From the NCBI GenBank assembly GCA_038891615.1, contig JAWADY010000001.1, positions 170,952-234,951 of the forward strand: 64,000 nt of DNA, read 5' to 3'. Positions 26,176 to 42,110 of this stretch are shown in pieces. The notes under the pieces were generated by a model, which saw only the letters and a list, made by a program, of their open reading frames with translations, was not told where the DNA came from and ran no database searches. This DNA is from Candidatus Woesearchaeota archaeon (GTDB lineage Archaea > Nanobdellota > Nanobdellia > Woesearchaeales > ARS49). How positions within the stretch are numbered: the stretch's first letter is position 1; every line of letters starts with the position of its first letter. A program made the position numbers and the translations under genes.

Positions 26176-26302
26176 TTTTATTTTACATTACACCTCCGAG
26201 CTAAATAATCTGAAAAGGCAAAGGATTGAAACACCATATATTAATTTCGGTGAAACTAGTTTCAAAGGAATTTTAAGTTTCTAAGCTTTATAACAGGCAA
26301 AT

Positions 26303-26815: not shown

Positions 26816-26858
26816 GCATTTATATTACGAATGACGATTTTTAAAGGTTGCTGTTCAT

Positions 26859-26876
26859 CCCTTTTTGCAAAAAGGG
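26859..26876. terminator. perfect 18-nt palindrome CCCTTTTTGCAAAAAGGG downstream of hsdR (minus strand), candidate terminator
   Basis: Direct reading. A T5 run lies within the stem on the transcribed strand. Confidence 0.3.
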
Positions 26877-27005
26877 GTGATCCTGATAAAGAAATCTAGG
26901 TTGAATTTTGCCCAAACTTGATGAGAACCTTTACGATATGTATACGGAACATCATAAAATCCTCTGTCAACAGACTTAATCCAAGCATCTATTTTTTGTG
27001 CATAT

Positions 27006-30000
27006 TCACACAGTAACTAAATTTCCAGCAACTAACTCTGCTTGTTTTAAAACGGTTTCTGTTGCTTTTTTTTCTTTATCAGGCGGATAGCCATATTTTC
27101 TCAGTATTTTCTTTACTTTGAGGCGCAACTCTGCTTGAACACTTTCTCTTTGTGTCCAGTCTATTGTAACACTTTTTCTTATCATTTGTGTTAGTTCGAG
27201 TGCTATTTTTCTTAAGGTTTCGTCACCAAGTATTTTAACTGCGCTATCATTGGCTTCAAGTGCATCATAAAATGCAAGTTCATCTTCACTCATTCCAAGC
27301 TCTTTTCCCCTGTTTTTTTCTTCTCTAACTTTTCGTGCTAACTCTATTAATTCTTCTACAGCTTGCGCAGCCTCTATAGTCCTATTTGTATATTTCTTTA
27401 TTGTTTTATCCAGCATCTCCATGAAAGATTTGCCTCGAACAAGGTTTCTTTTTGAAATTATTTTAATCTCATCATTCAATAATTTTTTAAGAGCTTCAAA
27501 CGCGAGGTTTTTCTGAGGCATATCTCTTACTTCAGCTAGAAAACGCTCTGATAAAATTGAAAGTTCTGGTTTTTTAATTCCAGCAGCCTCAAATATATCT
27601 ATAATTCTATCAGAGATTACTGCCTTTGAAATAATCTGTTTGATTGCTGTTTCATATTCTTCTATTACATCTTTTTTGGTTTCGAGTTTTTTTGACATTG
27701 TTAATTTTAATGTCTGAAAAAAGCCAACTTCTTCCTTAATCTTCATGGCTTTTTCATGAGGAAATGACAAAGATAATGCTTTTACAAGAGCTGTTGCTTC
27801 TTTTCTAAATCTTTCTTTTTTCCCTGGCTCTTTTAGTATGTATTCCATTGCATTTAGCATGAAAGGAAATTTTTCTTTTGGCGAAAGCTCGAAAAATTTC
27901 TTGTAATTAAAACCATAAAACATATCTTTAACTATCTCATATTTTTCTAACATTAATTTGACAGCCTCTTCTTGGTCCAATATTGGCTTTCCTTTACCGC
28001 CACTTAGTGTATAATCCATAAGTGCTTTTTTAAGTTCAGCTCCAACACCCATATAGTCGACAATCAGACCACCTTCCTTTCCAGGATAAACCCGATTCAC
28101 TCTTGCTATTGCCTGCATTAGAGTATGACCTTTTATTGGCTTATCAAGATACATTGTATGCAGAGATGGCGCATCGAACCCTGTCAAGAACATATCTCTT
28201 ACGATAAGGAGTTTGATTTCATGTTTTGGGTCCCTAAAATTATCCCCTATTCTCTTTCTTCTTTCTTTGTTTCTTATATGCTGCTGCCATTCTTTCGGGT
28301 CAGAAGCAGAGCCTGTTATTACGACTTTAATAAATCCTTTATCATCGTCATCATTATGCCACTCTGGCCTTAGTTTTATTATCTCGTTATAAAGGTCAAT
28401 GCATATTCTTCTCGACATACAAACAATCATTCCTTTTCCATCAAGGACAGAAAGCCTTTGCTCAAAATGATTTACAATGTCTTCTGCAATCCTTCTTATT
28501 CTTTTAGGAGCGCCCGCAACCTTTTCAAGACTTGCCCATTTACTTTTAAGTTTTTCTTTATGCTCTACCTCTTCGCCTTCTGTTACCTCCTCGAACTCTG
28601 GATCAATCTTTGGTCTTTCTTCTGGTTTTAACTCCAGCTTTGCTAATCTGCTTTCGTAAAATATTCCTACAGTAGCACCATCATTAATAGCTTGTTCAAT
28701 ATCATAAATATCAACATATTTTCCAAATACAGCAGGGGTTGATCTATCCTCTTTTTCTATTGGCGTTCCAGTAAAGCCAATGAATGACGCATTGGGCAAA
28801 GCATCTCTTAAGTACTTTGCATAACCATATGTTATAAGCACCTTATCTTCTTTTTTCAGTATTCTTGCAGGAAAACCATATTGGCTTCTATGAGCTTCAT
28901 CCGCTATTACAATAATATTGTCTCGCTCTGATAGAGTAGGATACTTTTCTCTATCATCTTTTGTTTCTGGAAAGAATTTTTGTATAGTAGTAAAAATAAT
29001 TCCGCCAGAAGCAACTTTAAGTAATTCCATCAGTTCTTTTCTTGTGCTTGCTTGAACTGGTTCTTGTCTTAATATGTCTTGACACTTGATAAAAGTTCCA
29101 AATAATTGGTCATCAAGGTCATTTCTGTCTGTAAGAACAACAATCGTAGGATTATCCAGTTGTCTAATAATTTTTCCAGCGTAAAAAATCATTGTCAAAC
29201 TTTTTCCAGAACCCTGAGTGTGCCACACAATACCTGCCTTTTTATTTGTCCTTCTTGCCTGCAAGGTTGATTCTACTGCTTTATTTGCAGCCCAATACTG
29301 GTGATATGCTGCTAATTTCTTTTTTGTTTCTTTATCTTTTTCAAAAACAATAAAGTTTCTTACGATATCTAAAAGCTTGTCTTTGTCAAGCATGCCTCTA
29401 AGCAAGATTTCTATTTCTGATAGCCCTTTCATCGGTTTTTCTCCTTCTATTGTTTTCCACTGCATAAACCTCTCTGGCTCAGAAGTAATCGTGCCTGCTC
29501 TTGCATCCATGCCATCGCTAATAACTAAAATTTCGTTATATTTGAACAAAGAAGGTATCTGTTCTTTATATGTTTGAAATTGATTATATGCTGTCCAGAT
29601 TGTTGCATCTTTATCTGCAGGGTTTTTTAACTCTATAACAACCAAAGGCAAGCCATTAACAAACAACACAATATCTGGCCTTCTTTCAGCATTGTTTTCT
29701 ATTACTGTAAACTGGTTGACTGCAAGAAAATCATTATTTTTTATATCTTCAAAATCGAACAAATTAATCAAAACGTGCCTTTCTTCACCTGCTTTTGCTA
29801 TAGGAATGCTGATACCATCTGTAAGCATCCTATGAAAGGTTTCATTGTCAACAAGCAACTTTTGGCTTCCTATTCTCAAGACTTCCTTTATAGCCTGCTC
29901 TCTCACCTCTTCTGAAACCTGCGGATTAATCCTTCTCAAAGCTTCTCTTAATCTATCAACAAGCACAACATCTTCATATCTCTGCCTTAGAGCATATTTT

Positions 30001-30110
30001 CCACCTGGTAAGTAATCCTCATTATTTCCCCTGATTACTTCATAGCCAAGGCTGCCCAAAACTGACAAAGCAAATTCTTCAACATCCGATTCATGGATTG
30101 CTTTTATCAT
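27006..30110 (-). CDS. hsdR: Type I restriction enzyme R subunit
   Basis: 1034 aa. Walker [17 protein letters not shown] box [11 protein letters not shown], HsdR N-terminal nuclease region. Confidence 0.9.
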
Positions 30111-30511
30111 TTCATCATCTTCTTAAATTTCAAGATTAAATTTTTCAATTGTTCCACAACAACCTCTGCTTCTTCCTTTTCAAGCTTTTTTCCATAATAA
30201 TTTACAGCGTTTCTAGTTTTTCTTAAATTATCAAAAATGTCAGCTTCCCTAGATAAATTTAATATTTCTTTTAGAAAAGCTGTGTAGCATTCATGATTAT
30301 AAATTTTGAATCCTTTTTTAATAGGCAATGCTTCTAAAATCTCCCTTAATGAATCGTACAATAAAGAAATTTTGCTTATAAGAAATTCATCAGCCAAAGA
30401 ATCAGTAGAGTTAAATTTTATTTCTGCTGTTTCTAATAAAGATATTATCATATTTTTATCCTCTTTCGTCTCTTTTGCAATTCTTTGTTTTAAGCATTCT
30501 CTCCAGTCCAT
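30107..30511 (-). CDS. HEPN-like protein, putative partner of the adjacent MNT
   Basis: 134 aa, all-alpha. [12 protein letters not shown] resembles the HEPN Rx4-6H box, but His appears replaced. Gene order and 2-nt spacing after the MNT gene are typical of MNT-HEPN modules. Confidence 0.45.
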
Positions 30512-30512
30512 C

Positions 30513-31025
30513 TTACCAGTTCCCTTTTATTTTGAAACCATTTAATATATTTTTAAGCAAATTTTCACTTTTTACATCTTCAATTCCTCTAAAAACAAAA
30601 ATCTGTATTCTCCTTTTTAGCAATTTTTCAAATTTCTCAAGATTAATTTCTTTTTTCGTTGGTGTAAAAATTGCAAGATCAATATCAGAATCAATCTTTG
30701 CTTCTCCTTTTGACAAAGAGCCAAAAAGATAAACTATTGGAGTTAATAAATTCTTTTCCAATTCTTTCAATAAGCCGGAATCTTCTAATATTTTTTTCCA
30801 ATAAATTCTTGATAACTCTACGAAAAGCTCAGAATCCTTATTTACAAAATAATAATTATAAATCTTCTCTTTTTCTTTTTTGAGCAAGCCTTCTTTATAC
30901 AAGTTTTCAAGAATCTTTGAAGCTGTCGGCGGGCTTATTTTTTGAATTCTTGCATACTCGCGAACATTAATCCGACTATAGCAATCTTCAAAGAAAGGCT
31001 TCAAAGTGTTAAATATTTCTAACAT
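30513..31025 (-). CDS. minimal nucleotidyltransferase (MNT) with N-terminal wHTH
   Basis: LFGSLSKGEAKIDSDIDLAIF is the GS..DxD pol-beta NTase motif. N-terminal REYARIQKISPPTASKILENL HTH-like segment. Confidence 0.65.
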   Translation of the reverse strand: MLEIFNTLKPFFEDCYSRINVREYARIQKISPPTASKILENLYKEGLLKKEKEKIYNYYFVNKDSELFVELSRIYWKKILEDSGLLKELEKNLLTPIVYLFGSLSKGEAKIDSDIDLAIFTPTKKEINLEKFEKLLKRRIQIFVFRGIEDVKSENLLKNILNGFKIKGNW

Positions 31026-31125
31026 ATGTTAAAAATAATTAACATTTCTATTTAAATCTTTTGAAAAATAAACCTCAAAATATATGTTAAAAATAATTAA
31101 CAAGTGTTAAAAAATATTAACATTT
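31026..31125. promoter_or_regulatory. three copies of a 20-nt palindromic operator-like repeat (ATGTTAA-N6-TTAACAT) upstream of and overlapping the MNT start codon
   Basis: Copies at 31026-31045, 31084-31103 and, degenerate, 31105-31125. The arms are exact reverse complements. Confidence 0.4.
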
Positions 31126-31130
31126 TTGTA

Positions 31131-32510
31131 TTAAGCAGATTTTTTAATCTCCCTTTCCATCTCTTTTATCATCTCAGCAGGCACTCTAATTTTGCCAGAC
31201 ATAAGTTTAGGAAGGAGAGAATCGCGAAGTTGGGAGAAGGTGAGGGATTCTTTTAAGTTATTATAAATTCGATTATAGATAATAGTTAATATATTTTCAA
31301 AAATATCTAAAACTTTTTTTTCAGGTATTAAAATTTTTGTTGATTTAATGTGATTTAAATTAATTATTGGCATAGTGCTTCCTGAAGATATTCTTTCCCA
31401 ATATTTCTCTTCGGATAGTCTTTTAAGGAAGATAAATAAATAGAATCTTCCTATTTTGTTTTCGTCTATTGTTATTTTTGCTAAACGACTTACTATTACA
31501 GCCTTATCATAAATATCAGTCATAATCCCTAGTAATCCTAGAGTCCCCGTTTTTGATATAATTATATCTCCTTTTTTAACAGAACTCCTTTTAACTTCTT
31601 GAAATTTTTTTTCTGATATAAAATGCTTAAATGGCTTATATAAAGGATAACCTTCCAAGTATTCCATTTCGATAATAGGAATTCCAGAATTTTGATATTC
31701 TGTTATTTTCATTTGTGTTCCGAATGGTCCATCGACTATTGAATTTTTCTCATCAGAGGATATATCTTCGATTTTCCCAACCCTCCACCCCTTAGGTATC
31801 TCTTTGCCGAGCTCTTCATTATAAACCATTTCTCCGCCAGAGCTTTTGTAAGGCTTACCCTCTTCATTCGGAAACTCAAAATCAACAAACCAGTGCTTGA
31901 AAATTGCCTGGCCAATTGCCTCAAGGGTTTTGTTCATTCGCTGGTTGAGTTCGATCTTATCATCAAATGCCGAAAGAACTTTAGCAATGGCGCGTTGCTC
32001 GGGGAGGGGCGGGATAGGAAGTTCTACATCCTTAAAAGTGTTTGTAGTTATGGTTTCAAAAACAGTTCCATAAGATACAGATCTAATCTTATTTATCGAG
32101 TTTTTAATCGAATAATAGAGGTATATTACATCATATTCTTTTTTTGGTTGTAAACCATAACATGTCTGATTAAAAGTCATCGGCTCTGGTAATAATGCTA
32201 TTGCACCGACAGTCCCTCTCGAAGTAATTACAATTGTATTTTTTGGATGGATTTTTGCATTGCTATTCTTTACTCCCTCTTCGGTTATTGTTCTTTCTGT
32301 AACTGTTACATATCGCGACTTAACATTTGCAATATCCCTTGCAGTTGCCCATTTAAATTTTCCATCCCAAAAATATTTAATTTCTGTTTTAGGGGTTCCC
32401 CCTAATGAAATATCGCATGTTTCACTAATAGATTTAACCTCCCAATCCTCAGGGATCATTCCGATTTCAGTTTGTTTGAATTTGGGTTTATTTTGGGTTT
32501 GAGGGTTCAT
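31131..32510 (-). CDS. hsdS: Type I restriction-modification specificity subunit
   Basis: Two target-recognition domains separated by conserved repeats. N-terminus MIPEDWEVKSISE is typical. The start was chosen at Met 32510 (MNPQTQ...). The ORF track extends to 32609. Confidence 0.8.
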   Translation of the reverse strand: MNPQTQNKPKFKQTEIGMIPEDWEVKSISETCDISLGGTPKTEIKYFWDGKFKWATARDIANVKSRYVTVTERTITEEGVKNSNAKIHPKNTIVITSRGTVGAIALLPEPMTFNQTCYGLQPKKEYDVIYLYYSIKNSINKIRSVSYGTVFETITTNTFKDVELPIPPLPEQRAIAKVLSAFDDKIELNQRMNKTLEAIGQAIFKHWFVDFEFPNEEGKPYKSSGGEMVYNEELGKEIPKGWRVGKIEDISSDEKNSIVDGPFGTQMKITEYQNSGIPIIEMEYLEGYPLYKPFKHFISEKKFQEVKRSSVKKGDIIISKTGTLGLLGIMTDIYDKAVIVSRLAKITIDENKIGRFYLFIFLKRLSEEKYWERISSGSTMPIINLNHIKSTKILIPEKKVLDIFENILTIIYNRIYNNLKESLTFSQLRDSLLPKLMSGKIRVPAEMIKEMEREIKKSA

Positions 32511-34095
32511 TTTTAACCACCATAAGTAATATACAGTTGTTATTGTTGTCTGGCACTTTGATAATCTCAATATTTGGCATTTTTGTCCTTTCTTGAAGTG
32601 ATTTAACAATTGTTTTTATTCTATCATCATCAAACTTAGAAATAGGAATAGGTTCAAATTGTTTTGTTTTTTCATTTGCACCAATGATATATACCTTTAT
32701 ATTAGACTCCTTCACCTTTTTACTAAGGTCGCTAGCAAAATAAGAAACTATTTCATCGTTACTACCTGAAAAAACATCCGAAGATTTCAATTCTAGTATT
32801 TCGTTTTCAGTATTTACAAAACTAATGTCAAAAGTTGAATTTTCAAATATCTTTTTAGATAGGCAATTTAAAAAATAACAAATAGGTTTATCTTCATTCT
32901 CTATGGCTAATAATTTTAAAATAGAGCCCAATAAAATACTATTAAATGAGTCTCTTATTTGCATTTTTTCATAATAATCTAAAAGTATTTTACTTAATTC
33001 TTTCTGTAGCTCGTTATAAATCTCCATGTTTTTTATTTTAATTGAGTTTGCGGATATTCTACAGCCTGCATGATAAACTCTGAAAGATTCGTTATTCAAT
33101 AATTTAGTTTTAATTTCTTCTAAGAAACTTCCCCGAATTTCTATGCTATTGTCTGAAAATAGTATTAGGAAGTTAGGATTTGTCTTTTTAATTATCACGT
33201 TGCCGTCTTGTTTTACAACATTATTCTTATCATCAAATATTTTTTCCTGATATGGAATGATAGAATTTTTTAACTTTATGTATTCTTCATTATAATAACT
33301 CAGATTATATCGTTTTGCTAAAAAATCTTGTACAAAATCATCATAATTTGTATATGGCTTCCTACCAACTTTGACTAATGACAACGGTATTCTTTCTATC
33401 GGAGCAGGTAAAATTATTTGTTTGTCCTTGACCTTAAACGCTTTTTCTTCTATAAACTTTTTCTCGAAATCGTCATCACTTAATTCTAAAGAAAAAGGAA
33501 CCCCGCTTACTTCACCACAAAATTTATTTTTACCGCCCAAATATTCAAATGCCACTTTTTGAGGTATACCTAACCAGTTAGCAAAGAACACAGAAGGATT
33601 AGTTTCATAAAAAATAACATCAATACTATCTTTCTCATTTTTAAAGTAAACAAATCTCAGGATATTATCTTTATCAAGCATTCTGTCTATAACCTCCCAT
33701 TTGGGTGTAATGGTTTCCTCACCAAAGAGGCTATGACAAAGTATGACAAATTCGGATGTGACTATACAAATCGCATATTTCTCTTCCATCCTCATTCTGG
33801 TGTTCATTTCGTCGCTAAAATCGTTAAGTAATTCTTTTGCGTCTCTGTCATCTATTAAAGGATAAGAGGAAATCAAATTTTTAATCCAAATTTGACAATT
33901 CTCCTTTAATTGAATTTCATCAAATTTTTTTCTTTTACCTAAATTTAATAACGAATTAACAACCTTCGTTATTTTATCTTTATCTACTTTTCTGGTTATT
34001 TTATCTTGGTTAATATCATTCTCAATTACTTTCTTTGAATATACGAATGTTGGCTCTCCCTTATTTTGATTTGTAATCATTATTACACACTCCAC
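32488..34095 (-). CDS. hypothetical 535-aa protein embedded between hsdM and hsdS (no recognisable motif; Asn/Lys/Ile-rich)
   Basis: Long ORF that overlaps hsdM by 13 nt and hsdS by about 23 nt, which implies translational coupling within the Type I R-M operon. No P-loop or nuclease motif seen. Confidence 0.5.
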
Positions 34096-35606
34096 CCCAG
34101 CATCTCCAAATTTCTTTTTATTTCTTCATCTAGCTTTTTGCTCTCTTCCATTTGCTGTTTGAGTTCTGCTGTGAGTTTTTTCATTTTTTCTTCAAAAACT
34201 TCTTCTGGCTCTTCTTGTTCTTCAAAGCCGACATAACGGCCTGGTGTTAAAATGAAATTATTTTTTTCAACTTCTTGTAATGAAGCAGATTTGCAAAAAC
34301 CAGGGATGTCTTTATATCCAAGTTTGTTTTCTCCTCTCCATGCATGGTAAGTATCGGCAATTTTCTTTATTTCATCATCAGTTAATTCTCTATGTCTTCT
34401 ATCAATCATTACGCCCATTTTTCTGGCATCGATAAACAGAATCTTTCCTCGTCTATCTTTGAACTTGTTATCTTTTTTATCACGAGCAATAAACCATAAA
34501 CAAGCTGGAATCATTGTGTTGTAGAACAGCTGCGATGGCAAAGCGACAATACAATCTACGAGGTCTGCTTTGATAATATTTTTTCTTATTTCTCCTTCGT
34601 TAGAAGTCATTGAGCTTAAAGAGCCGTTAGCAAGAACAAAACCAGCAATTCCTGTTGGTGATAAATGATGGATAAAATGCTGTACCCATGCAAAATTGGC
34701 ATTTCCTTTTGGTGGAACACCAAACTTCCACCTAACATCTTCTTGTAATAACTCGCCGCCCCAGTCTGAATCATTAAAAGGAGGATTTGCTAGGATAAAA
34801 TCAGCCTTCAAATCCTTGAATTGGTCGTCATGAAAAGAATCACCCCACTTAATGTTTGCGTCAATTCTTCTTATCGCAAGGTTCATTTTGCACAGACGCC
34901 ACGTTGTCTGGTTGCTTTCTTGACCATAAATTGAAATATCTCCAATCTTTCCACCATGAGCTTCAACAAATTTTTCTGATTGAACAAACATTCCTCCTGA
35001 ACCACAACAAGGGTCAAATATTCTTCCTTTGTATGGTTCAAGCATTTCAACAAGCAATTTTACAATGCATCTCGGTGTGTAGAACTGACCGCCTTTTTTG
35101 CCTTCTGCAGATGCAAATTGTCCAAGAAAATATTCGTAAACTCTTCCAAGAATGTCTTTGCTTTTGTTTTCTTTATCACCTAGCCCAATCGTGCCAATTA
35201 AATCTATTAGTTCTCCTAGGCGCTGCTTGCTTAATGCTGGCCTTGCATAAATCTTTGGGAGAACACCTTTTAATGAGGGATTATCCCTTTCGATATCCTC
35301 CATTGCATGGTCTATGAGTTCTCCAATTTCTGGCTTTTTTGCATTAGCCTGCAAATACTCCCATCGCGCTTCTTTTGGAACCCAGAAAACTCTTCTTGCA
35401 AGATATTCGTCAACATCTTCTGGATCAGCTTCTGGGTCTTTTTTTAATTCTTCATAAACTTCTTTAAAAGAGTCGGAAATGTATTTTAAGAATATTAAAC
35501 CTAAAACAACATGCTTGTATTCTGCAGCATCCATATTGCTTCTCAACTTGTCTGCAGCCTGCCAGAGCTTCTCTTCGAAACCTAAATTCGCACTATTAGT
35601 TTTCAT
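34083..35606 (-). CDS. hsdM: Type I restriction-modification N6-adenine DNA methyltransferase subunit
   Basis: Motif [15 protein letters not shown] and motif IV LANPPFN. HsdM N-terminal domain. 507 aa. Confidence 0.9.
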
Positions 35607-35828
35607 CTTATTTCACCTTTTTTCTTTCTCGGAGTATTCCAATAAGGGCTTTTGCACTTAGGACATACTTTTGGCTCTTTGGTTGTTGAATCTGGGAGAG
35701 TTTCAGATAAAAATCTTTCTCTTGCTCGCAAGATTAGATGGGCTTTTAAAATGACCTTTAATATGAGCGTGGTAACAAAGTATAAATACAAAAGATTTAT
35801 AAGGCTTAAAACAAAAAAGGTGAAAAAA

Positions 35829-36038
35829 ATGGCAAAAGAGACAAAGGATAGGTTGTTGCGGGGCATTGTTGGAGCAGTTCTGCTTTTTTACTCGCTGCCA
35901 GGACTGTTCATTTCAGGCTTTTATGGCGGAATGATGATGGGCAGAATGTTTTTGGGAACAGGAGGCAGCTTTTTTGTTTCCATTCTGCTAGCACTAATTG
36001 GTGTTTGGCTGCTTTATGATGCTATAAAGCCACAGTAG
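35829..36038 (+). CDS. small membrane protein (69 aa)
   Basis: ATG preceded by AAAGGTGA. Two hydrophobic helices. Overlaps the antisense ORF 35603-35866. Which of the two is real is unresolved. Confidence 0.3.
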   Translation: MAKETKDRLLRGIVGAVLLFYSLPGLFISGFYGGMMMGRMFLGTGGSFFVSILLALIGVWLLYDAIKPQ

Positions 36039-36089
36039 AAGAGCAGTAAAAGAGAAAAATTTTTAATCGCCTTTCATAAATTTTTGTAA

Positions 36090-37382
36090 GTGGTAGGGGT
36101 ACACTTTAAGACTTTTGGATGCACTGCAAACTTTTCAGATAGCGAGATAATGAAGGGGCTCTTAAAAAGTGCTTCTTACGAGGTTGTCGACAATGCGGAA
36201 AATGCAAGCGTCATTGTGGTAAATGTTTGCACTGTAAAAGGAGACCAGCATGCGCTTGCAGAAATTAAAAAGACTTCACTGGAAAATCCAGGAAAAAAAT
36301 TGATTATTGCTGGTTGCGTGACTAAAAGCTTGCTAGAAAGGGTAAAGGCTGAAATTCCTGATGTCAGCTTTCTTAATACTCACAACATAAAAAAAATTGA
36401 TTTTGTTGTAAACAGCACGCTTTCAGACAGGCCGGTTAGTCTTATATCAGGCTCTAATGAACCAAAAACAGGTCTTCCAAAGGTTAGAAAGAATCCTGTT
36501 GTTGGCATAATACAAATCGCAACTGGTTGTGATAGTTTCTGCTCTTTTTGCAGCACAAAGCTAATCAAAGGAAGGCTACAATCTTATTCGCCCTCATCAA
36601 TCGTGCAAGAGGCTGCTGAATGTATTAAAGAAGGATGTAAAGAAATATGGCTGACTGCAACCGATACCAGCTGCTATGGCCTTGACATTGGTACAAACCT
36701 TCCAAAACTTGTAAAGGTATTGACAAGGCTTGATGGCGAATTCATGATTAGGATTGGCATGGCAAATCCAAAACACGTCCTGCGTTATCAGGATGAGCTA
36801 ATAGAAGCTATATCTAATCCAAAAGTTTTCAAGTTTTTACATCTCCCTGTACAATCTGGCAATGACAGAGTGTTGAAAGCCATGAAAAGAGAATATACAG
36901 TGGAAGAGTATAAAAAATTGGTGTCCAGAATAAAAAAAGAAATTCCAGAGATTACAATTGCCACGGACATAATTGTAGGATTTCCTGGAGAAACCTTCGA
37001 AGAATTCATTGACTCTGTTAGATTGGTGGAAGAAACCAGGCCAGATGTGTTGAACATATCGCGATTTGTGCCAAGAGGTGGGACTCAAGCAATTAGGATG
37101 CCGAATCAGGTTCCAGAAATTGAGAAAAAGATGCGTAGCAGACTGCTTACACGGGTTTATTGGAATGTTGCGCTTGAGCAAAACCTCCGATGGCTGGGCT
37201 GGAAAGGGTTGTGCATCATCGATGAGGTTGGAAAGCATGGCACATTGATTGGGCGAAATTTTGCCTACAAACCAATCGTTTTACGGGGCACTCACAAGCT
37301 AGGAAGCATTGTTGAAGTAGAAATTTTAGCTGCTGAAAAATTCAACTTAAGAGATAAATCAGCAATAAAGGCTGAGGTTTAG
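36090..37382 (+). CDS. radical-SAM methylthiotransferase, MiaB/MtaB (CDKAL1-like) family
   Basis: N-terminal MTTase domain (KTFGCTANFSDSE). Radical SAM CxxxCxxC (IATGCDSFCSFC). C-terminal TRAM-like region. 430 aa. Confidence 0.8.
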   Translation: MVGVHFKTFGCTANFSDSEIMKGLLKSASYEVVDNAENASVIVVNVCTVKGDQHALAEIKKTSLENPGKKLIIAGCVTKSLLERVKAEIPDVSFLNTHNIKKIDFVVNSTLSDRPVSLISGSNEPKTGLPKVRKNPVVGIIQIATGCDSFCSFCSTKLIKGRLQSYSPSSIVQEAAECIKEGCKEIWLTATDTSCYGLDIGTNLPKLVKVLTRLDGEFMIRIGMANPKHVLRYQDELIEAISNPKVFKFLHLPVQSGNDRVLKAMKREYTVEEYKKLVSRIKKEIPEITIATDIIVGFPGETFEEFIDSVRLVEETRPDVLNISRFVPRGGTQAIRMPNQVPEIEKKMRSRLLTRVYWNVALEQNLRWLGWKGLCIIDEVGKHGTLIGRNFAYKPIVLRGTHKLGSIVEVEILAAEKFNLRDKSAIKAEV

Positions 37383-37392
37383 CTTAAGCAAA

Positions 37393-38073
37393 ATGAAGAT
37401 AGAATATGTTTGTCAAAGAAACATCGTCCGCAGCCCAACTTTTGAGGCAGTTAGTAAGTATTTTATTGCAAAAAAAAATCTGGAAGAACTGATTGAGATT
37501 TCTTCTTCAGGAATTGATGTTGATAGATTCAACAGAGGCCAGCTTAGGCCAGATGAGGTGTACAAGACTTTTGGATATTTAATTGAAGCCCAAAAGAAAA
37601 AAAAGCTGGCTGATGAGAATTTAATGCAAAAAGTTATTATAGAATACACGAATAGAATAATAAATTCGGATACAATTCTCCTTGCAAAAAAAGCCTTGAC
37701 TCTGTTTGAAGCGTATTGCGGCGAGATGCGAGATATTGCCCTTTTACAAAAGGGTATACCACTTCTGAAAGATTGGCGTTATCCCGAATCGCTAAAACAA
37801 ACAAAGGAAGGTGATGCAAAGATAATAGTTGTATTGGCAAAGGAATATATCGACTTTGTAAAAAAAATTTATTCTAACAGAAAGTCTAATGAGAAGCCAA
37901 AAATCCTTTCAATTACAGATTTTGGTGAAGAGCCAAAGGCTTATGGCTTTGAAGTAGCCGATTTTGGCGCAATTGTCGAGATTGCCTTGAAAAGCGTTCC
38001 AAATCTCATTGATTATTGCTGTACAAAAGGATATGTGCGTTTGGTAAAGCCAAATCAACTAATAGACTCTTGA
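37393..38073 (+). CDS. hypothetical protein with N-terminal low-molecular-weight phosphatase-like CX5R motif
   Basis: YVCQRNIVRSP resembles the LMW-PTP/ArsC P-loop V-C-x-G-N-x-C-R-S. The rest is unrecognised. Confidence 0.35.
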   Translation: MKIEYVCQRNIVRSPTFEAVSKYFIAKKNLEELIEISSSGIDVDRFNRGQLRPDEVYKTFGYLIEAQKKKKLADENLMQKVIIEYTNRIINSDTILLAKKALTLFEAYCGEMRDIALLQKGIPLLKDWRYPESLKQTKEGDAKIIVVLAKEYIDFVKKIYSNRKSNEKPKILSITDFGEEPKAYGFEVADFGAIVEIALKSVPNLIDYCCTKGYVRLVKPNQLIDS

Positions 38074-38264
38074 TTTCAACGAAAGCTTTATAAATGGATG
38101 CTTAACAATCTCAATTCTCAGAGCAGTCCCAAATGGTTCCAAATGCTTTCAAAAAATTCTCAACATAAAAAATGTTTCCACAAGCACATAGCCAACACAG
38201 TCAAAGTCATAAAATTAAATTAAAATTAAATAGAAGGATGAAAGTGAGTGAAGCGTCAAAAGCC

Positions 38265-38377
38265 GGGCCGGTAGCTCAACCCGGTAGAGCAGCGGACTTT
38301 TAGCGCAAATAGCATGTTACTTAAAGTGCAAAGTGTAAGCAATCCGTTGGTTGCGGGTTCAAATCCCGTCCGGCCCG
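38265..38377 (+). tRNA. tRNA-Lys (anticodon TTT) with ~39-nt intron
   Basis: Acceptor GGGCCGG/CCGGCCC. D-arm GCTC/GAGC. Anticodon stem GCGGA..TCCGT is interrupted after CTTTTA (intron 38303-38341). T-arm GCGGG-TTCAAAT-CCCGT. Discriminator G. Confidence 0.7.
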
Positions 38378-38381
38378 TTTC

Positions 38382-38507
38382 ACCGAACGCCAGCGAGGAG
38401 CGTCGCAGCAAGGGAACGAAGTGACCGTTGGCGAGACGCCCGCAGCAAGTGAGGTGAAACCACCGAACGCTAGGGAGCGTCGCAGCAAGGGAACGAAGTG
38501 ACCCTAG
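38382..38507. repeat. GC-rich tandem direct repeat (2 copies of a ~45-nt unit, core GAGCGTCGCAGCAAGGGAACGAAGTGACC exact) between tRNA-Lys and rpoH
   Basis: Copies start at 38382 and 38462. The internal sub-repeat CGCAGCAAG occurs 3 times. GC content is clearly above the surrounding sequence. Confidence 0.5.
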
Positions 38508-38518
38508 TGCGACCTGAG

Positions 38519-38532
38519 AATCAAAAATATTA
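38519..38532 (+). promoter_or_regulatory. TATA-like box (AAAAATATTAAAAG) upstream of rpoH; would give a near-leaderless transcript
   Basis: AT-rich TATA-like element about 20-25 nt upstream of the second in-frame ATG (38551, MATPKF...). Confidence 0.25.
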
Positions 38533-38541
38533 AAAGGAAAG

Positions 38542-38796
38542 ATGGTTAAAATGGCTACACCAAAGTTTGATGTAACAAAACACTTTCTTGTACCCAAGCA
38601 CATTAAGGTGAGTGAAAAGGAGCTAAAAGAGTTAACTGAAAAGTTCGCACTCGCTCCAGATTCCTTCCCGAAAATACTTGCAAGCGACCCTGCGATTGAG
38701 CACCTCAAAGCAAAAGAAGGTGATGTGATAAAAATCATTCGATGGTCCCCAACAGCTGGCGAGGCGGTGTATTACAGGCAGGTGATTAAGGGCTAA
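38542..38796 (+). CDS. rpoH: DNA-directed RNA polymerase subunit H (Rpo5)
   Basis: FDVTKHFLVPKHIKVSEKELKEL...GDVIKIIRWSPTAGEAVYYRQV is the conserved RpoH core. An alternative start is at 38551. Confidence 0.85.
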   Translation: MVKMATPKFDVTKHFLVPKHIKVSEKELKELTEKFALAPDSFPKILASDPAIEHLKAKEGDVIKIIRWSPTAGEAVYYRQVIKG

Positions 38797-38797: not shown

Positions 38798-40303
38798 ATG
38801 TCTGCTGAAACAAGGATACTCCTCAAAAAATATTTTGAAGAAAACTCATTTGTACGCTCGGATATAGAATCCTTTAATGATTTCGTTGACCGAGAGCTGC
38901 ATAATATTGTTGAAGAAAACAAAATAATAGAACCAACAATTATCCCTCCAAATGTTGAAAAATTCCAGATAAGGCTAGACGGGATATCTGTTGAGAAGCC
39001 AGAAATTATTGAAGCAGATGGCAGCAGGAGACCCATTTATCCGACTGAGGCAAGACTAAGAAAAATAACCTACGCAGCTCCTATTTACTTAGACATCAGT
39101 TCGCACATAAATGATGTTCAGCGCGAAAGCTTCACTCCACAAATAGGAAACCTACCAATAATGCTGAAGTCAAAATACTGCCATCTTAATGGCCTTAGCG
39201 AAGAACAGCTTGTGGAAAAAGGCGAAGACCCATACGACCCAGGAGGTTATTTCATCATAAATGGCACTGAGCGCATACTTGTTCATGTAGAAGACCTTGC
39301 TGCAAACAGGTTTATCGTTGAAAAAACAGGGGGTGTCAGCGAGTATACTGGAAGAATTTTCTCTGAATGGGGAAGTTACAAAATTCCGCACACTTTAGAA
39401 ATGCTAAAAGACGGGCTTTTATACCTTAGCTTTAGCGGAAGAGCAAAGCGCATACCTCTCATAGTTGTCATAAAGGCTCTTGGCCTTATTAAGGATGAGG
39501 AAATTGTTAATTTTGTATCGCGTGAAAGGCAGTACGATGAAGTGCTTATAAACCTTTTTGAATATTCCGGCATTAAAACATCAGAGGACGCAATGGAATG
39601 GATTGCAAAAGAGATTGGTATAACACAAGCAAAGGAAGTCAGACTTGAAAGGGTTTCTGAAATTTTGGACCGATTTCTTTTGCCACACATCGGTGTATCA
39701 CAACATGCAAGAATAGCAAAGGCGTGGAACCTGTGCAAAATGATAAGAAAATATCTGGCAGTCGCCAATGGTGAAATAGAACCAGACGATAAAGATCACT
39801 ATATGAACAAGCGCCTTAAGATGGCTGGCGACCTTCTAGCAGATCTCTTTAGGGTCAATCTTAAAATAATGATAAATGACCTTCTTTACAATTTCCAACG
39901 AAGTGTTAAGCGTGGCAAGTTTCCTTCAATAAAAACCCTTGTGAGGGAGAAGCTACTAACTTCAAGGATTTATAGCGCGATGGCAACTGGCAACTGGGTT
40001 GGTGGGCGAAAGGGAATATCTCAGAGGATTCAAAGATTAAACAACCTGAATACTTTGAGTCATCTACAAAGGGTTGTTTCACCCTTATCCTCAACGCAAG
40101 AGAACTTCGAAGCAAGAGCGCTTCACCCAACACACTTAGGAAGACTTTGCCCAGTTGAAACCCCTGAAGGAATTCCGATTGGTTTGAGAAAAAATCTTTC
40201 ACTACTTGCTTCGGTTTCACTCGAGTCGCCTGAAGAAGAAATACTTAAGGTCCTGAGGTCTGCAGGCCTCAAAGAGCTCCAGCTAGAGCGACCTGGAAAG
40301 TAA
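38798..40303 (+). CDS. rpoB2: DNA-directed RNA polymerase subunit B'' (Rpo2N)
   Basis: 501 aa. Conserved Rpb2 N-terminal regions (ESFNDFV, GYFIINGTERILV). Confidence 0.95.
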   Translation: MSAETRILLKKYFEENSFVRSDIESFNDFVDRELHNIVEENKIIEPTIIPPNVEKFQIRLDGISVEKPEIIEADGSRRPIYPTEARLRKITYAAPIYLDISSHINDVQRESFTPQIGNLPIMLKSKYCHLNGLSEEQLVEKGEDPYDPGGYFIINGTERILVHVEDLAANRFIVEKTGGVSEYTGRIFSEWGSYKIPHTLEMLKDGLLYLSFSGRAKRIPLIVVIKALGLIKDEEIVNFVSRERQYDEVLINLFEYSGIKTSEDAMEWIAKEIGITQAKEVRLERVSEILDRFLLPHIGVSQHARIAKAWNLCKMIRKYLAVANGEIEPDDKDHYMNKRLKMAGDLLADLFRVNLKIMINDLLYNFQRSVKRGKFPSIKTLVREKLLTSRIYSAMATGNWVGGRKGISQRIQRLNNLNTLSHLQRVVSPLSSTQENFEARALHPTHLGRLCPVETPEGIPIGLRKNLSLLASVSLESPEEEILKVLRSAGLKELQLERPGK

Positions 40304-40307: not shown

Positions 40308-42110
40308 ATGACAGAAGTTTATCTTAATGGCAAGTTTGTCGGCGATGTTGAAAGTCCTGAAGATTTCATTAGACACATAAAAAGTGAAAGAAGGAAAGGA
40401 TTGATAACCCAGAATCTTAATGTCTATTATGACAAAAGGCTCGAGAGGATTGAAGTTGAAGCAGGTCATGGAAGGGTTAGACGACCATTGATAGTTGTGC
40501 GCGATGGCCAACCTCTTCTAACAGAAAAGCACATCAAACAACTTGAAGCAGGAGAAATAAAGTGGAGCGATCTTATCAGACAGGGAGTGATAGAGTATCT
40601 TGACGCGTCTGAAGAAGAAGATGCGCTTGTTGCATTTTCTCCAAAAGAGCTAACGCCAGAACACACTCATCTCGAGATTACCCCACTTGCAATGCTTGGC
40701 CTTGTAACAAGCCTTGTACCATATGCAAACTTCATCATGCCAGTTAGATTGATAATCGGTTCAAAAAATCTCCGACAATCAATAGGTTTTTACACAGCGA
40801 ATTATCCGTTGCGGATGGATATGGACATAGGTCTGTTGCACTATCCACAAGTTCCAATTGTAAAAACAGCCATGCATGACATTTCACACTATGAACGCTA
40901 TCCAGCGGGCCAAAACATTGTTATTGCTGTGATTGGGTATGAAGGCTATAATATGGAAGATGCAATAGTCATTAACAAAGGTAGCATCCAACGCGGTTTT
41001 GGAAGGTCGACCTATTTCCGTCCTGTCATAAGCGAAGAGTTACGCTATTCAGGAGGTCTAATGGATAGGATCTGCATACCTGATAAAGATGTCAAGGGCT
41101 ATAGATCTGAAAAAGATTACAGATTTCTTGAAGATGATGGAATTGTTTATCCAGAAGCCAGGGTAAAAGAAGGAGACGTCGTCATTGGAAAAACCTCCCC
41201 ACCAAGGTTCTTAAGCGCATTTGAGGAGTATGGGCTGGCTGCAAACATAAGAAGGGAAAGCTCAGAAGTGCTAAAGCATGGCGAGGGAGGGATTGTTGAT
41301 TTTGTACTAATTACTGAAAACGAGGAAGGCAACAAATCAGTGCAGGTGAGAATAAGGGATCAAATGATACCTGAAATTGGGGATAAATTCATTTCAAGAC
41401 ATTCCCAAAAAGGTGTTGTTGGATTAATTGTTCCGGAGAGCGACATGCCCTTTACCGCTTCAGGAATCAGGCCTGACATACTTTTTAGTCCACATTCGAT
41501 ACCTTCAAGAATGACTATATCGCATCTCCTTGAGCTTATTGGAGCAAAGGTTGGCGCGCTTGCCGGAAGGGAAGTAGATGCAACAGCCTTTGAAGGCGAG
41601 CCGGAAGAAGCGCTGAGACAGGAACTTCTTAGATTAGGTTTCAACGAGAAAGGTATTGAGACGATGTATAATGGAATTACCGGCGAACAATACAAAGTAA
41701 AAATATTCGTTGGCCCTATGTACTACTTGAAACTTAAGCATCTTGTTGCCAACAAGATACAGTCCAGGGCACGTGGGCCAATCCAGTTGCTTACAAGGCA
41801 GCCAACTGAAGGGCGGGCAAAAGAGGGAGGGCTGAGACTTGGAGAGATGGAAAAGGACACCTTTGTGGCGCACGGGGCTGCACTCCTGCTAAAAGAGCGT
41901 TTTGATTCTGATAAGACGGTAGTTCCAGTGTGTGAAAATTGCGGGCTAATTGCCATCCACGACAGCTATAAGAAAAAACGCTATTGCCTGGTTTGTGGTG
42001 AAAATGTTGAGATAAATGATATTGAAATTAGCTATGCTTTCAAACTTATGCTTGACGAACTAAAAGCTATGGGAATTTATCCGAAAATGAGTCTTAAAAC
42101 AAAATACTGA
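40308..42110 (+). CDS. rpoB1: DNA-directed RNA polymerase subunit B' (Rpo2C)
   Basis: 600 aa. GYNMEDAIVINKGSIQRG, SRHSQKGV and the C-terminal zinc ribbon CENCGLIA...CLVCG. Confidence 0.95.
   Translation: MTEVYLNGKFVGDVESPEDFIRHIKSERRKGLITQNLNVYYDKRLERIEVEAGHGRVRRPLIVVRDGQPLLTEKHIKQLEAGEIKWSDLIRQGVIEYLDASEEEDALVAFSPKELTPEHTHLEITPLAMLGLVTSLVPYANFIMPVRLIIGSKNLRQSIGFYTANYPLRMDMDIGLLHYPQVPIVKTAMHDISHYERYPAGQNIVIAVIGYEGYNMEDAIVINKGSIQRGFGRSTYFRPVISEELRYSGGLMDRICIPDKDVKGYRSEKDYRFLEDDGIVYPEARVKEGDVVIGKTSPPRFLSAFEEYGLAANIRRESSEVLKHGEGGIVDFVLITENEEGNKSVQVRIRDQMIPEIGDKFISRHSQKGVVGLIVPESDMPFTASGIRPDILFSPHSIPSRMTISHLLELIGAKVGALAGREVDATAFEGEPEEALRQELLRLGFNEKGIETMYNGITGEQYKVKIFVGPMYYLKLKHLVANKIQSRARGPIQLLTRQPTEGRAKEGGLRLGEMEKDTFVAHGAALLLKERFDSDKTVVPVCENCGLIAIHDSYKKKRYCLVCGENVEINDIEISYAFKLMLDELKAMGIYPKMSLKTKY

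Follow-up and report, generated by a model that had tools for sequence, protein, structure and literature searches.

In Nanoarchaeum equitans, a DPANN archaeon, downstream sRNAs acquire their 5' ends when RNase Z cleaves tRNA precursors, and one mRNA has a tRNA half as its 5' UTR (PMC3491384). Described RNase Z-processed dicistrons include the N. equitans sRNA8-tRNA-Val pair, the 5' half of tRNA-His making up the 5' UTR of the valyl-tRNA synthetase mRNA, and Tko-sR44 of T. kodakarensis. Here, we examine a locus in another DPANN archaeon with a comparable layout: a putative structured RNA begins a few nucleotides past the 3' end of tRNA-Lys, on the same strand and with no apparent promoter or terminator in between, upstream of the RNA polymerase operon. 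In such an arrangement, tRNA 3' processing would create the 5' end of the adjoining RNA. The known dicistron partners are canonical C/D box sRNAs or ordinary mRNAs, whereas this segment shows neither C/D nor H/ACA features, contains an internal duplication and is without homologues, and its processing is one that we infer.

Other described systems resemble parts of this element. A stable helix at the first nucleotide of an mRNA, followed by an A-rich loading region, recalls the E. coli ompA 5' UTR hairpin and the Bacillus 5' stabilisers; in those bacterial cases, the influence on RNase E/J decay was determined by experiment, whereas here the helix is predicted. We know of no archaeal 5' stabilising stem-loop at a tRNA-mRNA junction. 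Short, GC-rich imperfect palindromes arranged in tandem within a transcription unit are also typical of REP/BIME elements and MITEs, but these are dispersed in numerous copies whose stems or terminal inverted repeats are conserved, while this element occupies a single locus in 81 kb, has no conserved terminal inverted repeats, and carries stem arms that differ between its copies around an identical apical part, so that we rejected a MITE or REP assignment. Finally, GC-island screens in AT-rich (hyper)thermophiles by Klein, Misulovin and Eddy in 2002 reportedly yielded conserved ncRNA families (Hgc RNAs and C/D sRNAs). The element shares with such islands a local GC peak and a tRNA-like composition in an AT-rich archaeal genome; unlike them, it lacks relatives and fits none of the Rfam models.

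A duplicated GC-rich insert downstream of tRNA-Lys

The gap between tRNA-Lys and rpoH, normally tiny, measures 173 bases in this hot-spring-type Woesearchaeota genome, and is largely filled by an insert that ends about 40 nt short of rpoH (Table 1; coordinates refer to the window, the whole 64-kb stretch of DNA analysed). A repeat search identified a stretch of 30 nt, GGAGCGTCGCAGCAAGGGAACGAAGTGACC, that recurs exactly and in direct orientation (38397-38426 and 38474-38503; starts 77 nt apart). The repeats thus lie where the original prediction had placed them, and their identical core is 30 nt long rather than the 29 nt first reported. Each core copy is preceded by CACCGAACGC(C/T)AG(C/G)GAG (38381-38397 and 38461-38477, 80 nt apart), giving a repeat unit of about 43-46 nt whose two copies are 95% identical and differ by a 3-nt GAG indel; the earlier description of a unit of about 45 nt in copies about 80 nt apart is borne out, as is that of an internal sub-repeat present three times (CGCAGCAAG at 38404, 38441 and 38481). 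The block also adjoins the tRNA 3' end as described, across 4 nt and not 5 nt. With up to three mismatches allowed, the 30-mer occurs at just two sites in 64 kb, against zero expected from shuffles. Tandem Repeats Finder did not report the element, which amounts to 1.6 copies with a divergent middle.

Table 1. Coordinates of the features at the tRNA-Lys-rpoH locus
Feature	Position	Strand	Description
tRNA-Lys(UUU), 40-nt intron at 37/38	38265-38377	+	Rfam RF00005, 59.8 bits
Predicted outer helix P1, 5' strand UUUCACC	38378-38384	+	Pairs with GGUGAAA at 38453-38459
Repeat unit A1 (CACCGAACGCCAGCGAG + 30-nt core)	38381-38426	+	
Predicted hairpin 1	38388-38433	+	-19.1 kcal/mol, z -2.81, 1/200 shuffles
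Third, degenerate copy, CGCAGCAAGUGAGGUGAAAC	38441-38460	+	Contains SD-like GAGGUGA
Repeat unit A2 (CACCGAACGCTAGG + 30-nt core)	38461-38503	+	
Predicted hairpin 2	38468-38509	+	-16.5 kcal/mol, z -2.2, 8/200 shuffles
A/U-rich unstructured stretch, CUGAGAAUCAAAAAUAUUAAAAGGAAAGAUGGUUAAA	38514-38550	+	Unpaired in every predicted fold
rpoH	38551-38796	+	Pfam RNA_pol_Rpb5_C (PF01191); 81 aa; P0001 100% identical
rpoB'' (split rpoB)	38798-40303	+	ORF; Pfam RNA_pol_Rpb2_1 to Rpb2_7 across both rpoB parts
rpoB' (split rpoB)	40308-42110	+	ORF; with rpoB'', rest of the RNA polymerase operon

This GC-rich twin-repeat insert is a real feature of the genome. The element is identical in two NCBI MAGs, and among Logan contigs retrieved from seven samples in all (SRR27730021-25 and SRR27730028), six end or begin within its sequence, at 38421 and 38444, and each of the six bears one of the two distinguishable copies; because the MAGs agree and the contigs carry distinguishable copies, it is not an assembly artefact. 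The samples are clonal, with 100% identity over 21 kb and only the clonal sequence recovered in a variant-allele search via the upstream gene, so identity across samples says nothing about selection.

The composition of the insert is equally distinct. GC content over 38378-38522 is 61%, peaking at 65%, compared with a mean of 33% (sd 6%) for the 35 intergenic segments of the window and 40% for its coding DNA, and no other 145-nt intergenic stretch in the window exceeds 51%; the initial impression of a GC content far above the local average was therefore correct. The value resembles that of the tRNAs of this window (54-68%), and 61% GC in an AT-rich genome is a signature of structured RNA.

Upstream, tRNA-Lys was missed by ARAGORN in bacterial mode and placed by Rfam; it lacks an encoded CCA, has G38377 as its discriminator, and is preceded by a TATA-like sequence, AAAATTAAATAG, that we read at 38221-38232. 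Downstream of the hairpins, the A/U-rich stretch includes a weak SD, AAGGA (38534-38538), and a TATA-like AAAAATATTAAAA spans 38522-38534, for which promoter and leader roles are both possible. The rpoH start at 38551 agrees with homologues in an N-terminal alignment, and an alternative in-frame ATG lies at 38542. Two candidate small ORFs, GTG38421-TGA38501 (26 codons) and GTG38498-TAA38533 (11 codons), overlap by GUGA. This pairing is an automatic outcome of the 77-nt repeat spacing, and we found no supporting evidence for either as a real gene.

Known classes of RNA and DNA element fit the insert poorly, and the earlier judgement that it is not tRNA-like, CRISPR-like or coding stands. Across 38150-38650, only the tRNA passes in Rfam 15 searched at gathering thresholds and at E up to 10, all other matches having E of at least 4.7 and none overlapping the repeats. 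Two exact 30-nt direct repeats with 47 nt between them do resemble a CRISPR mini-array, but there are only two, they lack a typical 3' handle, the 16 nt upstream of each (CACCGAACGCYAG) are duplicated as well, and the 'spacer' is not unique and holds the third, degenerate copy. No CRISPR array was found elsewhere in the window, and no Cas families appear among Pfam matches at 35.5-42 kb, 1-11.7 kb (L178) or about 51-64 kb (L180). A box C/D sRNA was rejected because UGAUGA is missing from both strands and CUGA occurs just once (38514-38517); the GUGA-N12-CUGA in copy 2 lacks the G-A/A-G/U-U/G-C pairs of a C/D K-turn. For box H/ACA, 38378-38522 contains no ACA (AGA and CGA follow the stems), there is no internal loop of about 10+10 nt, and the upper stem has 3 bp only. 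A kink-turn was likewise rejected by inspection, the bulge being 1 nt rather than the required 3 nt and falling on different strands in the two copies. As for an attachment scar, the window contains the final 19 nt of the tRNA a single time (up to three mismatches allowed) and the repeats share no sequence with the tRNA.

Predicted folding of the element

The + strand of the insert is predicted to form two hairpins, the first of them enclosed by P1. Unit 1 with P1 (38378-38462) has an MFE of -31.5 kcal/mol and a z-score of -3.25, with 0/200 shuffles as good; z-scores of -2 to -3, as for these hairpins, are modest for a repeat of 61% GC. The lower stem of hairpin 1, CGCCAGCG/CGUUGGCG, comprises 8 bp with one G-U, above which follow a bulged A, one G-C pair and a tandem G-A/A-G, then G-U and C-G pairs, a single G-A mismatch, three base pairs and an apical 11-nt loop, CAGCAAGGGAA. 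Hairpin 2 also has a lower stem of 8 bp with one G-U (CGCUAGGG/CCCUAGUG), and its apical part is identical to that of hairpin 1; tandem 5'-GA-3'/5'-GA-3' pairs are possible in both (G38398-A38424 and A38399-G38423; G38475-A38501 and A38476-G38500). At 70 C the hairpins retain predicted energies of -5.8 and -4.8 kcal/mol, respectively, with the element still folded. In the predicted fold, P1 buries the relic SD-like GAGGUGA. A possible H-type pseudoknot could join the loop sequence GCGUC(GCA) to GACGC at 38435-39 or UGCGAC at 38508-13, though chance is hard to exclude because GCGUCGC is nearly self-complementary.

The whole element reaches -52.6 kcal/mol (z -2.3) on the + strand, compared with a z-score of -1.2 on the - strand. 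The G-U pair in each lower stem becomes an A-C mismatch on the - strand, and hairpin 1 when reverse-complemented falls from -19.1 to -11.8 kcal/mol; in these models, folding favours the + strand. The ensemble is nonetheless diffuse, with an MFE frequency of 0.5%, and includes a competing long hairpin that joins both repeats at -52 kcal/mol. The local-hairpin arrangement comes to about -50 kcal/mol if calculated from the MFE of unit 1 with P1 (-33.7) and hairpin 2 (-16.5), but that MFE has an internal fold other than hairpin 1, and an explicit model of P1, hairpin 1 and hairpin 2 yields just -36 kcal/mol.

The two copies differ almost solely in the lower stem, whose 5' side carries two substitutions and the 3-nt indel and whose 3' side has diverged (CGCCAGCG/CGTTGGCG in one copy versus CGCTAGGG/CCCTAGTG in the other), around an identical interior. 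Despite this divergence, within either copy the 5' arm forms 8 bp with the 3' arm, and arm-swapped chimeras lose 1.5-6 kcal/mol and the common hairpin. A covariation count on a two-copy MAFFT alignment, in which the 3' arms are out of structural register, found no pair changed on both sides; this count is uninformative because the two stems lie in different registers, and no database relative exceeds 72% RpoH identity, a distance too great for a real covariation analysis.

The tRNA-Lys-rpoH junction and the origin of the insert

Many archaea link tRNA-Lys to rpoH: among 136 archaeal loci, 85 have tRNA-Lys(UUU) as the immediate upstream neighbour of rpoH. The spacer has a median of about 28 nt, is only 2-20 nt in some loci, and varies widely in length between lineages. 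Since the linkage is conserved and such spacers are too short for a promoter, co-transcription of tRNA-Lys and rpoH is implied. Our literature search on this linkage returned nothing specific. In the genome studied here, P1 begins at 38378, immediately after the discriminator, and neither a TATA-like motif nor a T-run precedes 38520; read from the sequence, the element thus appears to be a same-strand RNA directly 3' of a tRNA with no promoter or terminator intervening. Archaeal termination is independent of hairpins. The longest T-run in 38378-38550 is 3, with none of 4 or more between tRNA-Lys and rpoH, and we accordingly rejected an intrinsic terminator or attenuator.

The insert is unique to its own lineage. 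It is absent from the nearest relatives (RpoH 60-72% identical), and is not required for rpoH expression, as these closest relatives do without it. The conservation in relatives that had been put forward as a test is thus not seen at the distances available (RpoH at most 72% identical). No further copy turned up in 81 kb of this genome, in 168 relatives' loci, or in public collections of genomes, metagenomes, viruses, phages and plasmids. R1, a covariance model built from the two copies and run with filters off, recovered only those two in the window, none in 17 kb of extra flanks (81 kb total), and none in 100 relatives' loci, where the best foreign match (L060, 13.6 bits, E 2.2) is noise; loci outside the R1 scan were covered by a k-mer test where an rpoH start was assigned. 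An exact scan for the 21-nt core in GTDB genomes, IMG/VR and JGI metagenomes gave zero matches, which means that both the species and the element are missing from those collections, and blastn at a distant setting found no match in phages and plasmids. The dispersed, MITE-like repeat raised as an alternative by the original prediction, which had called for a check for copies elsewhere, is therefore not seen in 81 kb.

Sequence within the insert points to a local source. GCAAGTGAGGT, at 38445-38455, corresponds to what relatives carry immediately before the rpoH ATG, where GCAAGTGAGG(T) lies 10-13 nt upstream of the ATG in L091 and L133; for each of the L133, L091 and L093 leaders, the best alignment falls at 38441-38460 (for L133, 7/1000 shuffles). 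This apparent relic of a native short leader suggests that the element most likely arose in place by local duplication. Relatives' leaders are AT-rich (26-42% GC), and more general similarity was scant: local alignment of the element to the 260 nt upstream in relatives gave no z above 3.2, a 38-column alignment with L011 was reached by 12/500 shuffles, and shared 9-mers were not enriched upstream of rpoH relative to elsewhere (0.31 vs 0.22 per kb). Single matches to AAGGGAACG in the L012 spacer and CACCGAACACC in the L141 spacer were discarded as within chance overall.

Competing explanations for the element

We tentatively propose that the element is a transcribed, structured spacer that serves as the 5' leader of rpoH mRNA, specific to this lineage and derived from repeated local duplication of the leader. 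Under this model, transcription from the tRNA-Lys promoter would produce a tRNA-Lys-rpoHBA precursor, RNase Z would cut after G38377, and the RNA polymerase mRNA would then begin with the element. There it would fold with P1 around hairpin 1, followed by hairpin 2, and the ribosome-binding site would lie on the roughly 40 A-rich, unstructured nucleotides downstream of the hairpins. The most likely effects would be that the base-paired end of a 5'-monophosphate mRNA resists 5'-to-3' exonucleases and that the old, now-useless SD-like GAGGUGA is buried; the two identical apical parts might additionally offer a double site for some protein. Transcription, RNase Z processing and a stabilising role are what we infer here, and the TATA-like AAAAATATTAAAA could instead be rpoH's own promoter, leaving the element as merely a tRNA trailer. 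In favour of the model, long tRNA-Lys-rpoH spacers of other lineages are likewise strongly structured in folding predictions, with z-scores of -5.3 in L141, -6.3 in L012, -5.6 in L032 and -3.5 in L063. Of the roles originally suggested, a structured 5' leader fits best, given the lack of T-runs of 4 or more, the conserved linkage and the + strand folding. Its companion, an attenuator, finds no support, neither hairpin being followed by a U-run, and an integration remnant is likewise unsupported, the tRNA 3' end being unduplicated and the native leader relic inside the element pointing to local duplication.

The main rival, possible if somewhat unlikely, is a young and neutral local duplication, in which the native leader multiplied through replication slippage or template switching. 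Tandem near-palindromes (CGCNNGCG, GCGUCGC) would then give rise to the hairpins as a by-product, with quasi-palindrome 'correction' keeping the arms complementary without selection. Such an origin would account for the absence of the element from all relatives, for the 95% identity of A1 and A2, which suggests recent copying, and for the internal leader relic and nested sub-repeats (CGCAGCAAG three times), which would record serial slippage; the mere 1.5-6 kcal/mol lost by arm-swapped chimeras, the nil result of formal covariation and the highly variable spacer length at this junction agree with it as well. It sits less easily with 61% GC over 145 nt: the genome is streamlined, AT-rich and 88% coding, the value exceeds the intergenic mean by about 4 sd, and such a composition is hard to build from leaders of 26-42% GC without selection or a foreign source. 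Nor would it predict that the A units are near-identical while the flanking B segments are barely alignable, or that G-U pairs and energies favour one strand, and an insertion of 145 nt that separates an essential operon from the signals for its transcription and translation would probably have been purged had it been harmful. A foreign source, whether a MITE- or REP-like palindromic repeat or a tRNA-integration scar, appears very unlikely. The element does adjoin a tRNA gene, forms hairpins and is GC-rich relative to its host; the locus is rearranged, with a 14.8-kb block between tRNA-Asp and tRNA-Lys, and duplicated tRNA-Lys 3' ends occur downstream of the gene in six other loci (L012, L032, L051, L063, L065 and L162). 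Here, though, the tRNA 3' end is not duplicated, no integrase is adjacent, host leader sequence lies inside the element, and the searches for further copies (the covariance model over 81 kb of contiguous genome, the 21-nt core in GTDB, JGI and IMG/VR, and blastn against phages and plasmids) came back empty.

Two further readings uncouple the element from the rpoH mRNA. An independent small RNA or double protein-binding module, released by RNase Z and followed by a leaderless or near-leaderless rpoH transcribed from the TATA-like motif at 38522-38534, is unlikely in our view. RNase Z-processed tRNA-sRNA dicistrons are documented in N. equitans (PMC3491384) and T. kodakarensis (PMC4247193), a pair of 30-nt apical modules, identical and with tandem G-A, would suit it, and AAAAATATTAAAAGG resembles the tRNA-upstream TATA elements at 20130-20144, 23258-23270 and 38221-38232. 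Against it, that motif is about 5-8 nt too near the ATG, judged by the tRNA promoters; the element gives no Rfam match even at E up to 10, contains no C box (RUGAUGA), one CUGA, no ACA box or pseudouridylation pocket and no K-turn with a 3-nt bulge, carries no terminator or obvious 3'-end signal, and has no counterpart in relatives. The least likely reading places function in the DNA itself, with the 30-bp direct repeats, 77 bp apart, acting as regulator sites upstream of the RNA polymerase operon. The two sites are exactly identical over 30 bp, lie about 15-130 bp upstream of the TATA-like motif and contain the near-palindrome GCGTCGC; yet archaeal regulator sites are usually short palindromes over the BRE/TATA or transcription start site, no like site occurs elsewhere in 81 kb or in relatives, and neither the high GC content nor the strand-asymmetric G-U pairing would be explained.

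If the element is merely a young duplication, it represents ordinary intergenic turnover, and its practical effect is to break assemblies made with k=31 at the tRNA-Lys-rpoH locus. If the leader model holds, a DPANN archaeon with a reduced genome would express its essential RNA polymerase core operon by way of a tRNA-mRNA precursor, and a lineage would be able to add a heat-stable RNA structure to a 5' end made by tRNA processing. The importance of the insert itself is probably modest, and the wider pattern is perhaps the more useful lead: across many archaeal phyla tRNA-Lys is fused to rpoH, usually some 30 nt away, and several independent expansions of the spacer are strongly structured in folding predictions. 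The junction offers a concrete place for studying how tRNA and mRNA output from one promoter are uncoupled in archaea. A bolder version of the leader model, which we consider quite unlikely, holds that the identical 30-nt apical motifs (tandem G-A plus the CAGCAAGGGAA loop) of an RNase Z-made module bind a dimeric protein that sets the stability or translation of rpoHBA mRNA, and that structured spacers in several lineages reflect recurrent leader control. Candidate binders would be RNA polymerase, a ribosomal protein or an RNA-chaperone protein, and the lineages concerned would be this genome, L141, L012, L032 and Hydrothermarchaeota, whose spacers expanded independently.

Repeat structure and composition of the element

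The GC-rich insert between tRNA-Lys(UUU) and rpoH (38378-38522; hereafter the element) is statistically non-random, restricted to its lineage and without a known family. The direct repeats of the original prediction are present as a 30-nt exact repeat at 38397-38426 and 38474-38503, together with a second repeat of 17 nt at 88% identity (38381 and 38461), and the sub-repeat described with them, CGCAGCAAG, does occur three times; none of these repeats is expected by chance. When the two repeat units (unit 1, 38381-38426; unit 2, 38461-38503) are aligned they differ only in their arms: C38391 becomes T in unit 2, C38394 becomes G or lies within an indel, and there are further a 3-nt GAG indel and divergent sequence 3' of the core. 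A CRISPR array is excluded, as had been thought: the repeats are duplicated together with their flank, and a third, degenerate copy lies in the interval between them. The high GC content noted earlier amounts to 61%, against 33 +/- 6% in 35 intergenic segments, and equals that of the tRNAs in the window (39.7% GC overall, about 88% coding). The sole other GC-enriched 'intergenic' patch, at 51279-51431 (51% GC), matches no Rfam family and codes for a protein of 50 aa that contains two CxxC motifs (MAYGFGGSFGPRQMHKATCSECGKDCEVPFKPREDRPVYCRDCFQKHRKF) and fell below the ORF length cut-off used.

The same element sequence is found in two independent MAGs, including GCA_038890115.1 (contig JAWAGA010000001.1). 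In Logan assemblies (k=31) from six samples (L003-L005, L095-L097), contigs break exactly here, upstream-derived ones ending at 38421 and rpoH-derived ones beginning at 38444, as a k=31 graph behaves at a 30-nt repeat, and each side of the break holds its own distinguishable repeat copy. The element is therefore real, and its 30-nt repeat causes short-k assemblies to fragment at this organism's RNA polymerase operon. Identity between samples is 100% over 21.5 kb, indicating a clonal population, and agreement across samples is thus uninformative on constraint.

Predicted RNA structure

Each repeat unit is predicted to form a hairpin (hairpin 1, 38388-38433; hairpin 2, 38468-38509) with the same apical part in both, which from the last lower-stem pair upward comprises a tandem 5'-GA/5'-GA, 2 bp, a G-A mismatch, 3 bp and the 11-nt loop CAGCAAGGGAA. 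Unit 1 would be enclosed by an outer helix, P1, in which UUUCACC (38378-38384), opening at the first nucleotide past the tRNA discriminator, pairs with GGUGAAA (38453-38459). The predicted fold of 38378-38462 reaches -31.5 kcal/mol (z -3.25), with 0 of 200 shuffles as good. Folding potential is strand-biased, the whole element giving -52.6 kcal/mol (z -2.3) on the + strand versus z -1.2 on the - strand, and hairpin 1 is 7 kcal/mol less stable when reverse-complemented; the element's fold is retained at 70 C (-20.7 kcal/mol). The predicted ensemble is diffuse. For the element as a whole, the minimum-free-energy (MFE) structure joins parts of one repeat to the other in one long hairpin, an explicit model of P1 with both hairpins reaches -36 kcal/mol, and the local-hairpin arrangement comes near the MFE only with unit 1 in its own MFE fold, unlike hairpin 1. 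Chimeras with arms exchanged between the two copies are 1.5-6 kcal/mol less stable and no longer form the common hairpin shape, which weakly suggests that the arms co-vary; the formal pair count rests on two sequences only and so carries no information. The element matches no Rfam family, shows no box C/D, H/ACA or K-turn signature on inspection, and has no terminator, with no U-run after either hairpin.

Features of the locus, and folding of other long tRNA-Lys-rpoH spacers
Feature	Position	Strand	Basis or detail
tRNA-Lys(UUU)	38265-38377	+	Rfam; 40-nt intron after position 37
rpoH	38551-38796	+	downstream of tRNA-Lys and element
split rpoB''/rpoB' and rest of RNA polymerase operon	downstream of rpoH	+	ORFs, Pfam
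Unit 1 lower stem, CGCCAGCG / CGUUGGCG	38388-95 / 38426-33	+	8 bp, one G-U; -19.1 kcal/mol, z -2.8
Unit 2 lower stem, CGCUAGGG / CCCUAGUG	38468-75 / 38502-09	+	8 bp, one G-U; -16.5 kcal/mol, z -2.2
Other long spacer	L141 (~805-970)		folding z -5.3
Other long spacer	L012 (~1290-1497)		folding z -6.3
Other long spacer	L032		folding z -5.6
Other long spacer	L124		folding z -3.8
Other long spacer	L063		folding z -3.5
Other long spacer	L051		folding z -2.8

The tRNA-Lys-rpoH junction across archaea

We compared rpoH loci from 80 GTDB species, 80 metagenome contigs and the closest database proteins, using a crude but specific tRNA-Lys(UUU) detector. In at least 85 of 136 loci rpoH lies directly 3' of tRNA-Lys(UUU), under labels that include Woesearchaeota, Nanoarchaeia, Hydrothermarchaeota, Thermoplasmata/Thermoplasmatales and others. 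Spacers have a median length of about 28 nt, with many of 2-20 nt; given the established geometry of archaeal promoters, such spacers have no room for one, and transcription of rpoH in the genomes concerned would thus continue from the tRNA. This arrangement would imply a tRNA-Lys-rpoH co-transcript conserved across phyla.

The RpoH encoded in the window matches at 100% identity a protein annotated from a 'Candidatus Woesearchaeota archaeon' MAG; RpoH of the closest relatives is only 60-72% identical. In four of their loci (L091, L092, L093, L013) the spacer measures 25-35 nt and follows the pattern TTTCA...GGAGGCAAGTGAGGATA-ATG; the element is absent from these and from the 89-nt AT-rich spacer (27% GC) of L006. 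The window's own spacer, at 173 nt, is among the longest seen. It contains a relic leader: GCAAGTGAGGT (38445-38455) matches a sequence that precedes the ATG by 10-13 nt in both L091 and L133, and the leaders of L133, L091 and L093 align best at 38443-38457 (7, 89 and 180 of 1000 shuffles, respectively). The L013 leader agrees at 11 of 13 aligned positions with GCAAGGGAACGAA, in the apical part of the repeat unit. We propose that the native leader grew in situ via nested duplications, so that a former SD-like GAGGUGA would now lie isolated, 90 nt ahead of the current rpoH start. Local alignment, shared k-mers and R1, a covariance model built from the two repeat copies, found no statistically solid homology of the element to any other spacer in the relatives' loci.

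Other long spacers are strongly structured, and structured expansions therefore recur at this junction; they have no detectable sequence homology to the element and expanded independently in their lineages. The element is unusual in detail, not in kind, and the conserved junction with its recurrent expansions is the more general lead.

Introns at non-canonical positions (T-loop, D-loop) interrupt many tRNA-Lys genes of DPANN and Thermoplasmata type, in some cases two in one gene (loci including L014-L018, L020, L031, L036, L046, L052, L056 and L059, and L006 at 2700-2830), and ARAGORN misses or mis-assigns most of these genes. Separately, the last 13-17 nt of tRNA-Lys recur 50-90 nt past the intact gene in L012, L032, L051, L063, L065 and L162. 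The intervening ~87 nt are conserved in L063 and L065 (Hydrothermarchaeota/Pyrohabitans) and L162 (an unlabelled metagenome contig), with a C-box-like GAUGAUAG at the start and CUGA at the end; candidate explanations are an att scar, a T-loop intron in the making and an embedded C/D sRNA.

Possible role, rival explanations and genomic setting

The element probably arose locally, as a structured stretch that is both trailer to the tRNA and leader to the mRNA. We propose that the tRNA-Lys promoter (TATA-like 38221-38232) drives its transcription and that RNase Z, cutting after G38377, would make it the 5' end of the mRNA of the RNA polymerase operon, rpoHBA. Its paired 5' terminus and GC-rich hairpins would shield this 5'-monophosphate mRNA from 5'-to-3' decay, its structure would conceal the obsolete SD, and the working ribosome-binding site would lie in the A-rich unpaired stretch 38514-38550. 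In the DPANN archaeon N. equitans, an RNA lying downstream of a tRNA acquires its 5' end through RNase Z, and a piece of tRNA becomes an mRNA 5' UTR (PMC3491384); T. kodakarensis likewise provides a precedent (PMC4247193). Taken whole, as a transcribed, RNase Z-exposed and protective leader, this reading is tentative, and we give it somewhat less than an even chance.

Its main rival holds that the duplication is young and neutral and that the hairpins arise incidentally from the repetition of near-palindromes; we judge this somewhat less likely, its weakest point being a 61% GC element amid 33% GC intergenic DNA. Lesser rivals are a free-standing sRNA, with rpoH driven from its own promoter (TATA-like 38522-38534), a regulator site acting at the DNA level, and a mobile or foreign element. 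The covariance model, with filters off, found no third full repeat copy in the window; no copy of the element occurs in 17 kb of extra flanking genome or in 100 relatives' loci, its 21-nt core has zero matches in GTDB genomes, JGI metagenomes and IMG/VR, and blastn found no match in phage and plasmid collections. The suggested remnant of integration at the tRNA is not supported, as the 3' end of the tRNA occurs only once in the window. The 11-mer CACCGAACGCC from the 5' end of unit 1 recurs once, about 3.8 kb past the window end (L180 16796-16806, - strand), between a TATAAA and a gene's ATG; the number of such matches expected over 81 kb is about 0.04. In the L141 spacer, the 5' arm of one hairpin consists of a related sequence, CCACCGAACACC.

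Isolates JZ-2, JZ-4 and HHBFW-2, from the neighbouring accession series in GTDB, presumably belong to Tengchong hot-spring projects, which would suggest a thermal habitat for the source organism. Five tRNAs lie in the window (Rfam), three with long insertions consistent with introns. A gene at 36090-37382, 0.9 kb upstream of tRNA-Lys(UUU), encodes a protein with Pfam UPF0004 and Radical_SAM domains, a pair typical of the MiaB/MtaB-type methylthiotransferases that modify the tRNA-Lys(UUU) class. In L013 and L091-L093, tRNA-Asp(GUC) (23294-23435 in the window) sits about 6 nt from tRNA-Lys; here the two are split by a 14.8-kb block (within 23294-38264) that carries an HsdM methylase (Pfam), next to large ORFs resembling the remainder of a type I restriction-modification system, and small 134/170-aa gene pairs, with no duplicated tRNA end at its borders. 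The protein gene after tRNA-Asp follows a 75-nt spacer (23436-23510) with a strong SD, GAGGUGA-N7-AUG, and the pair is possibly a second tRNA-mRNA co-transcript in this genome. Several Woesearchaeota carry a conserved (A)GAGUGAAG motif 10-25 nt 5' of tRNA-Lys (window 38240-38256; L011, L014, L016, L020, L023), which may mark its transcription start or leader region.
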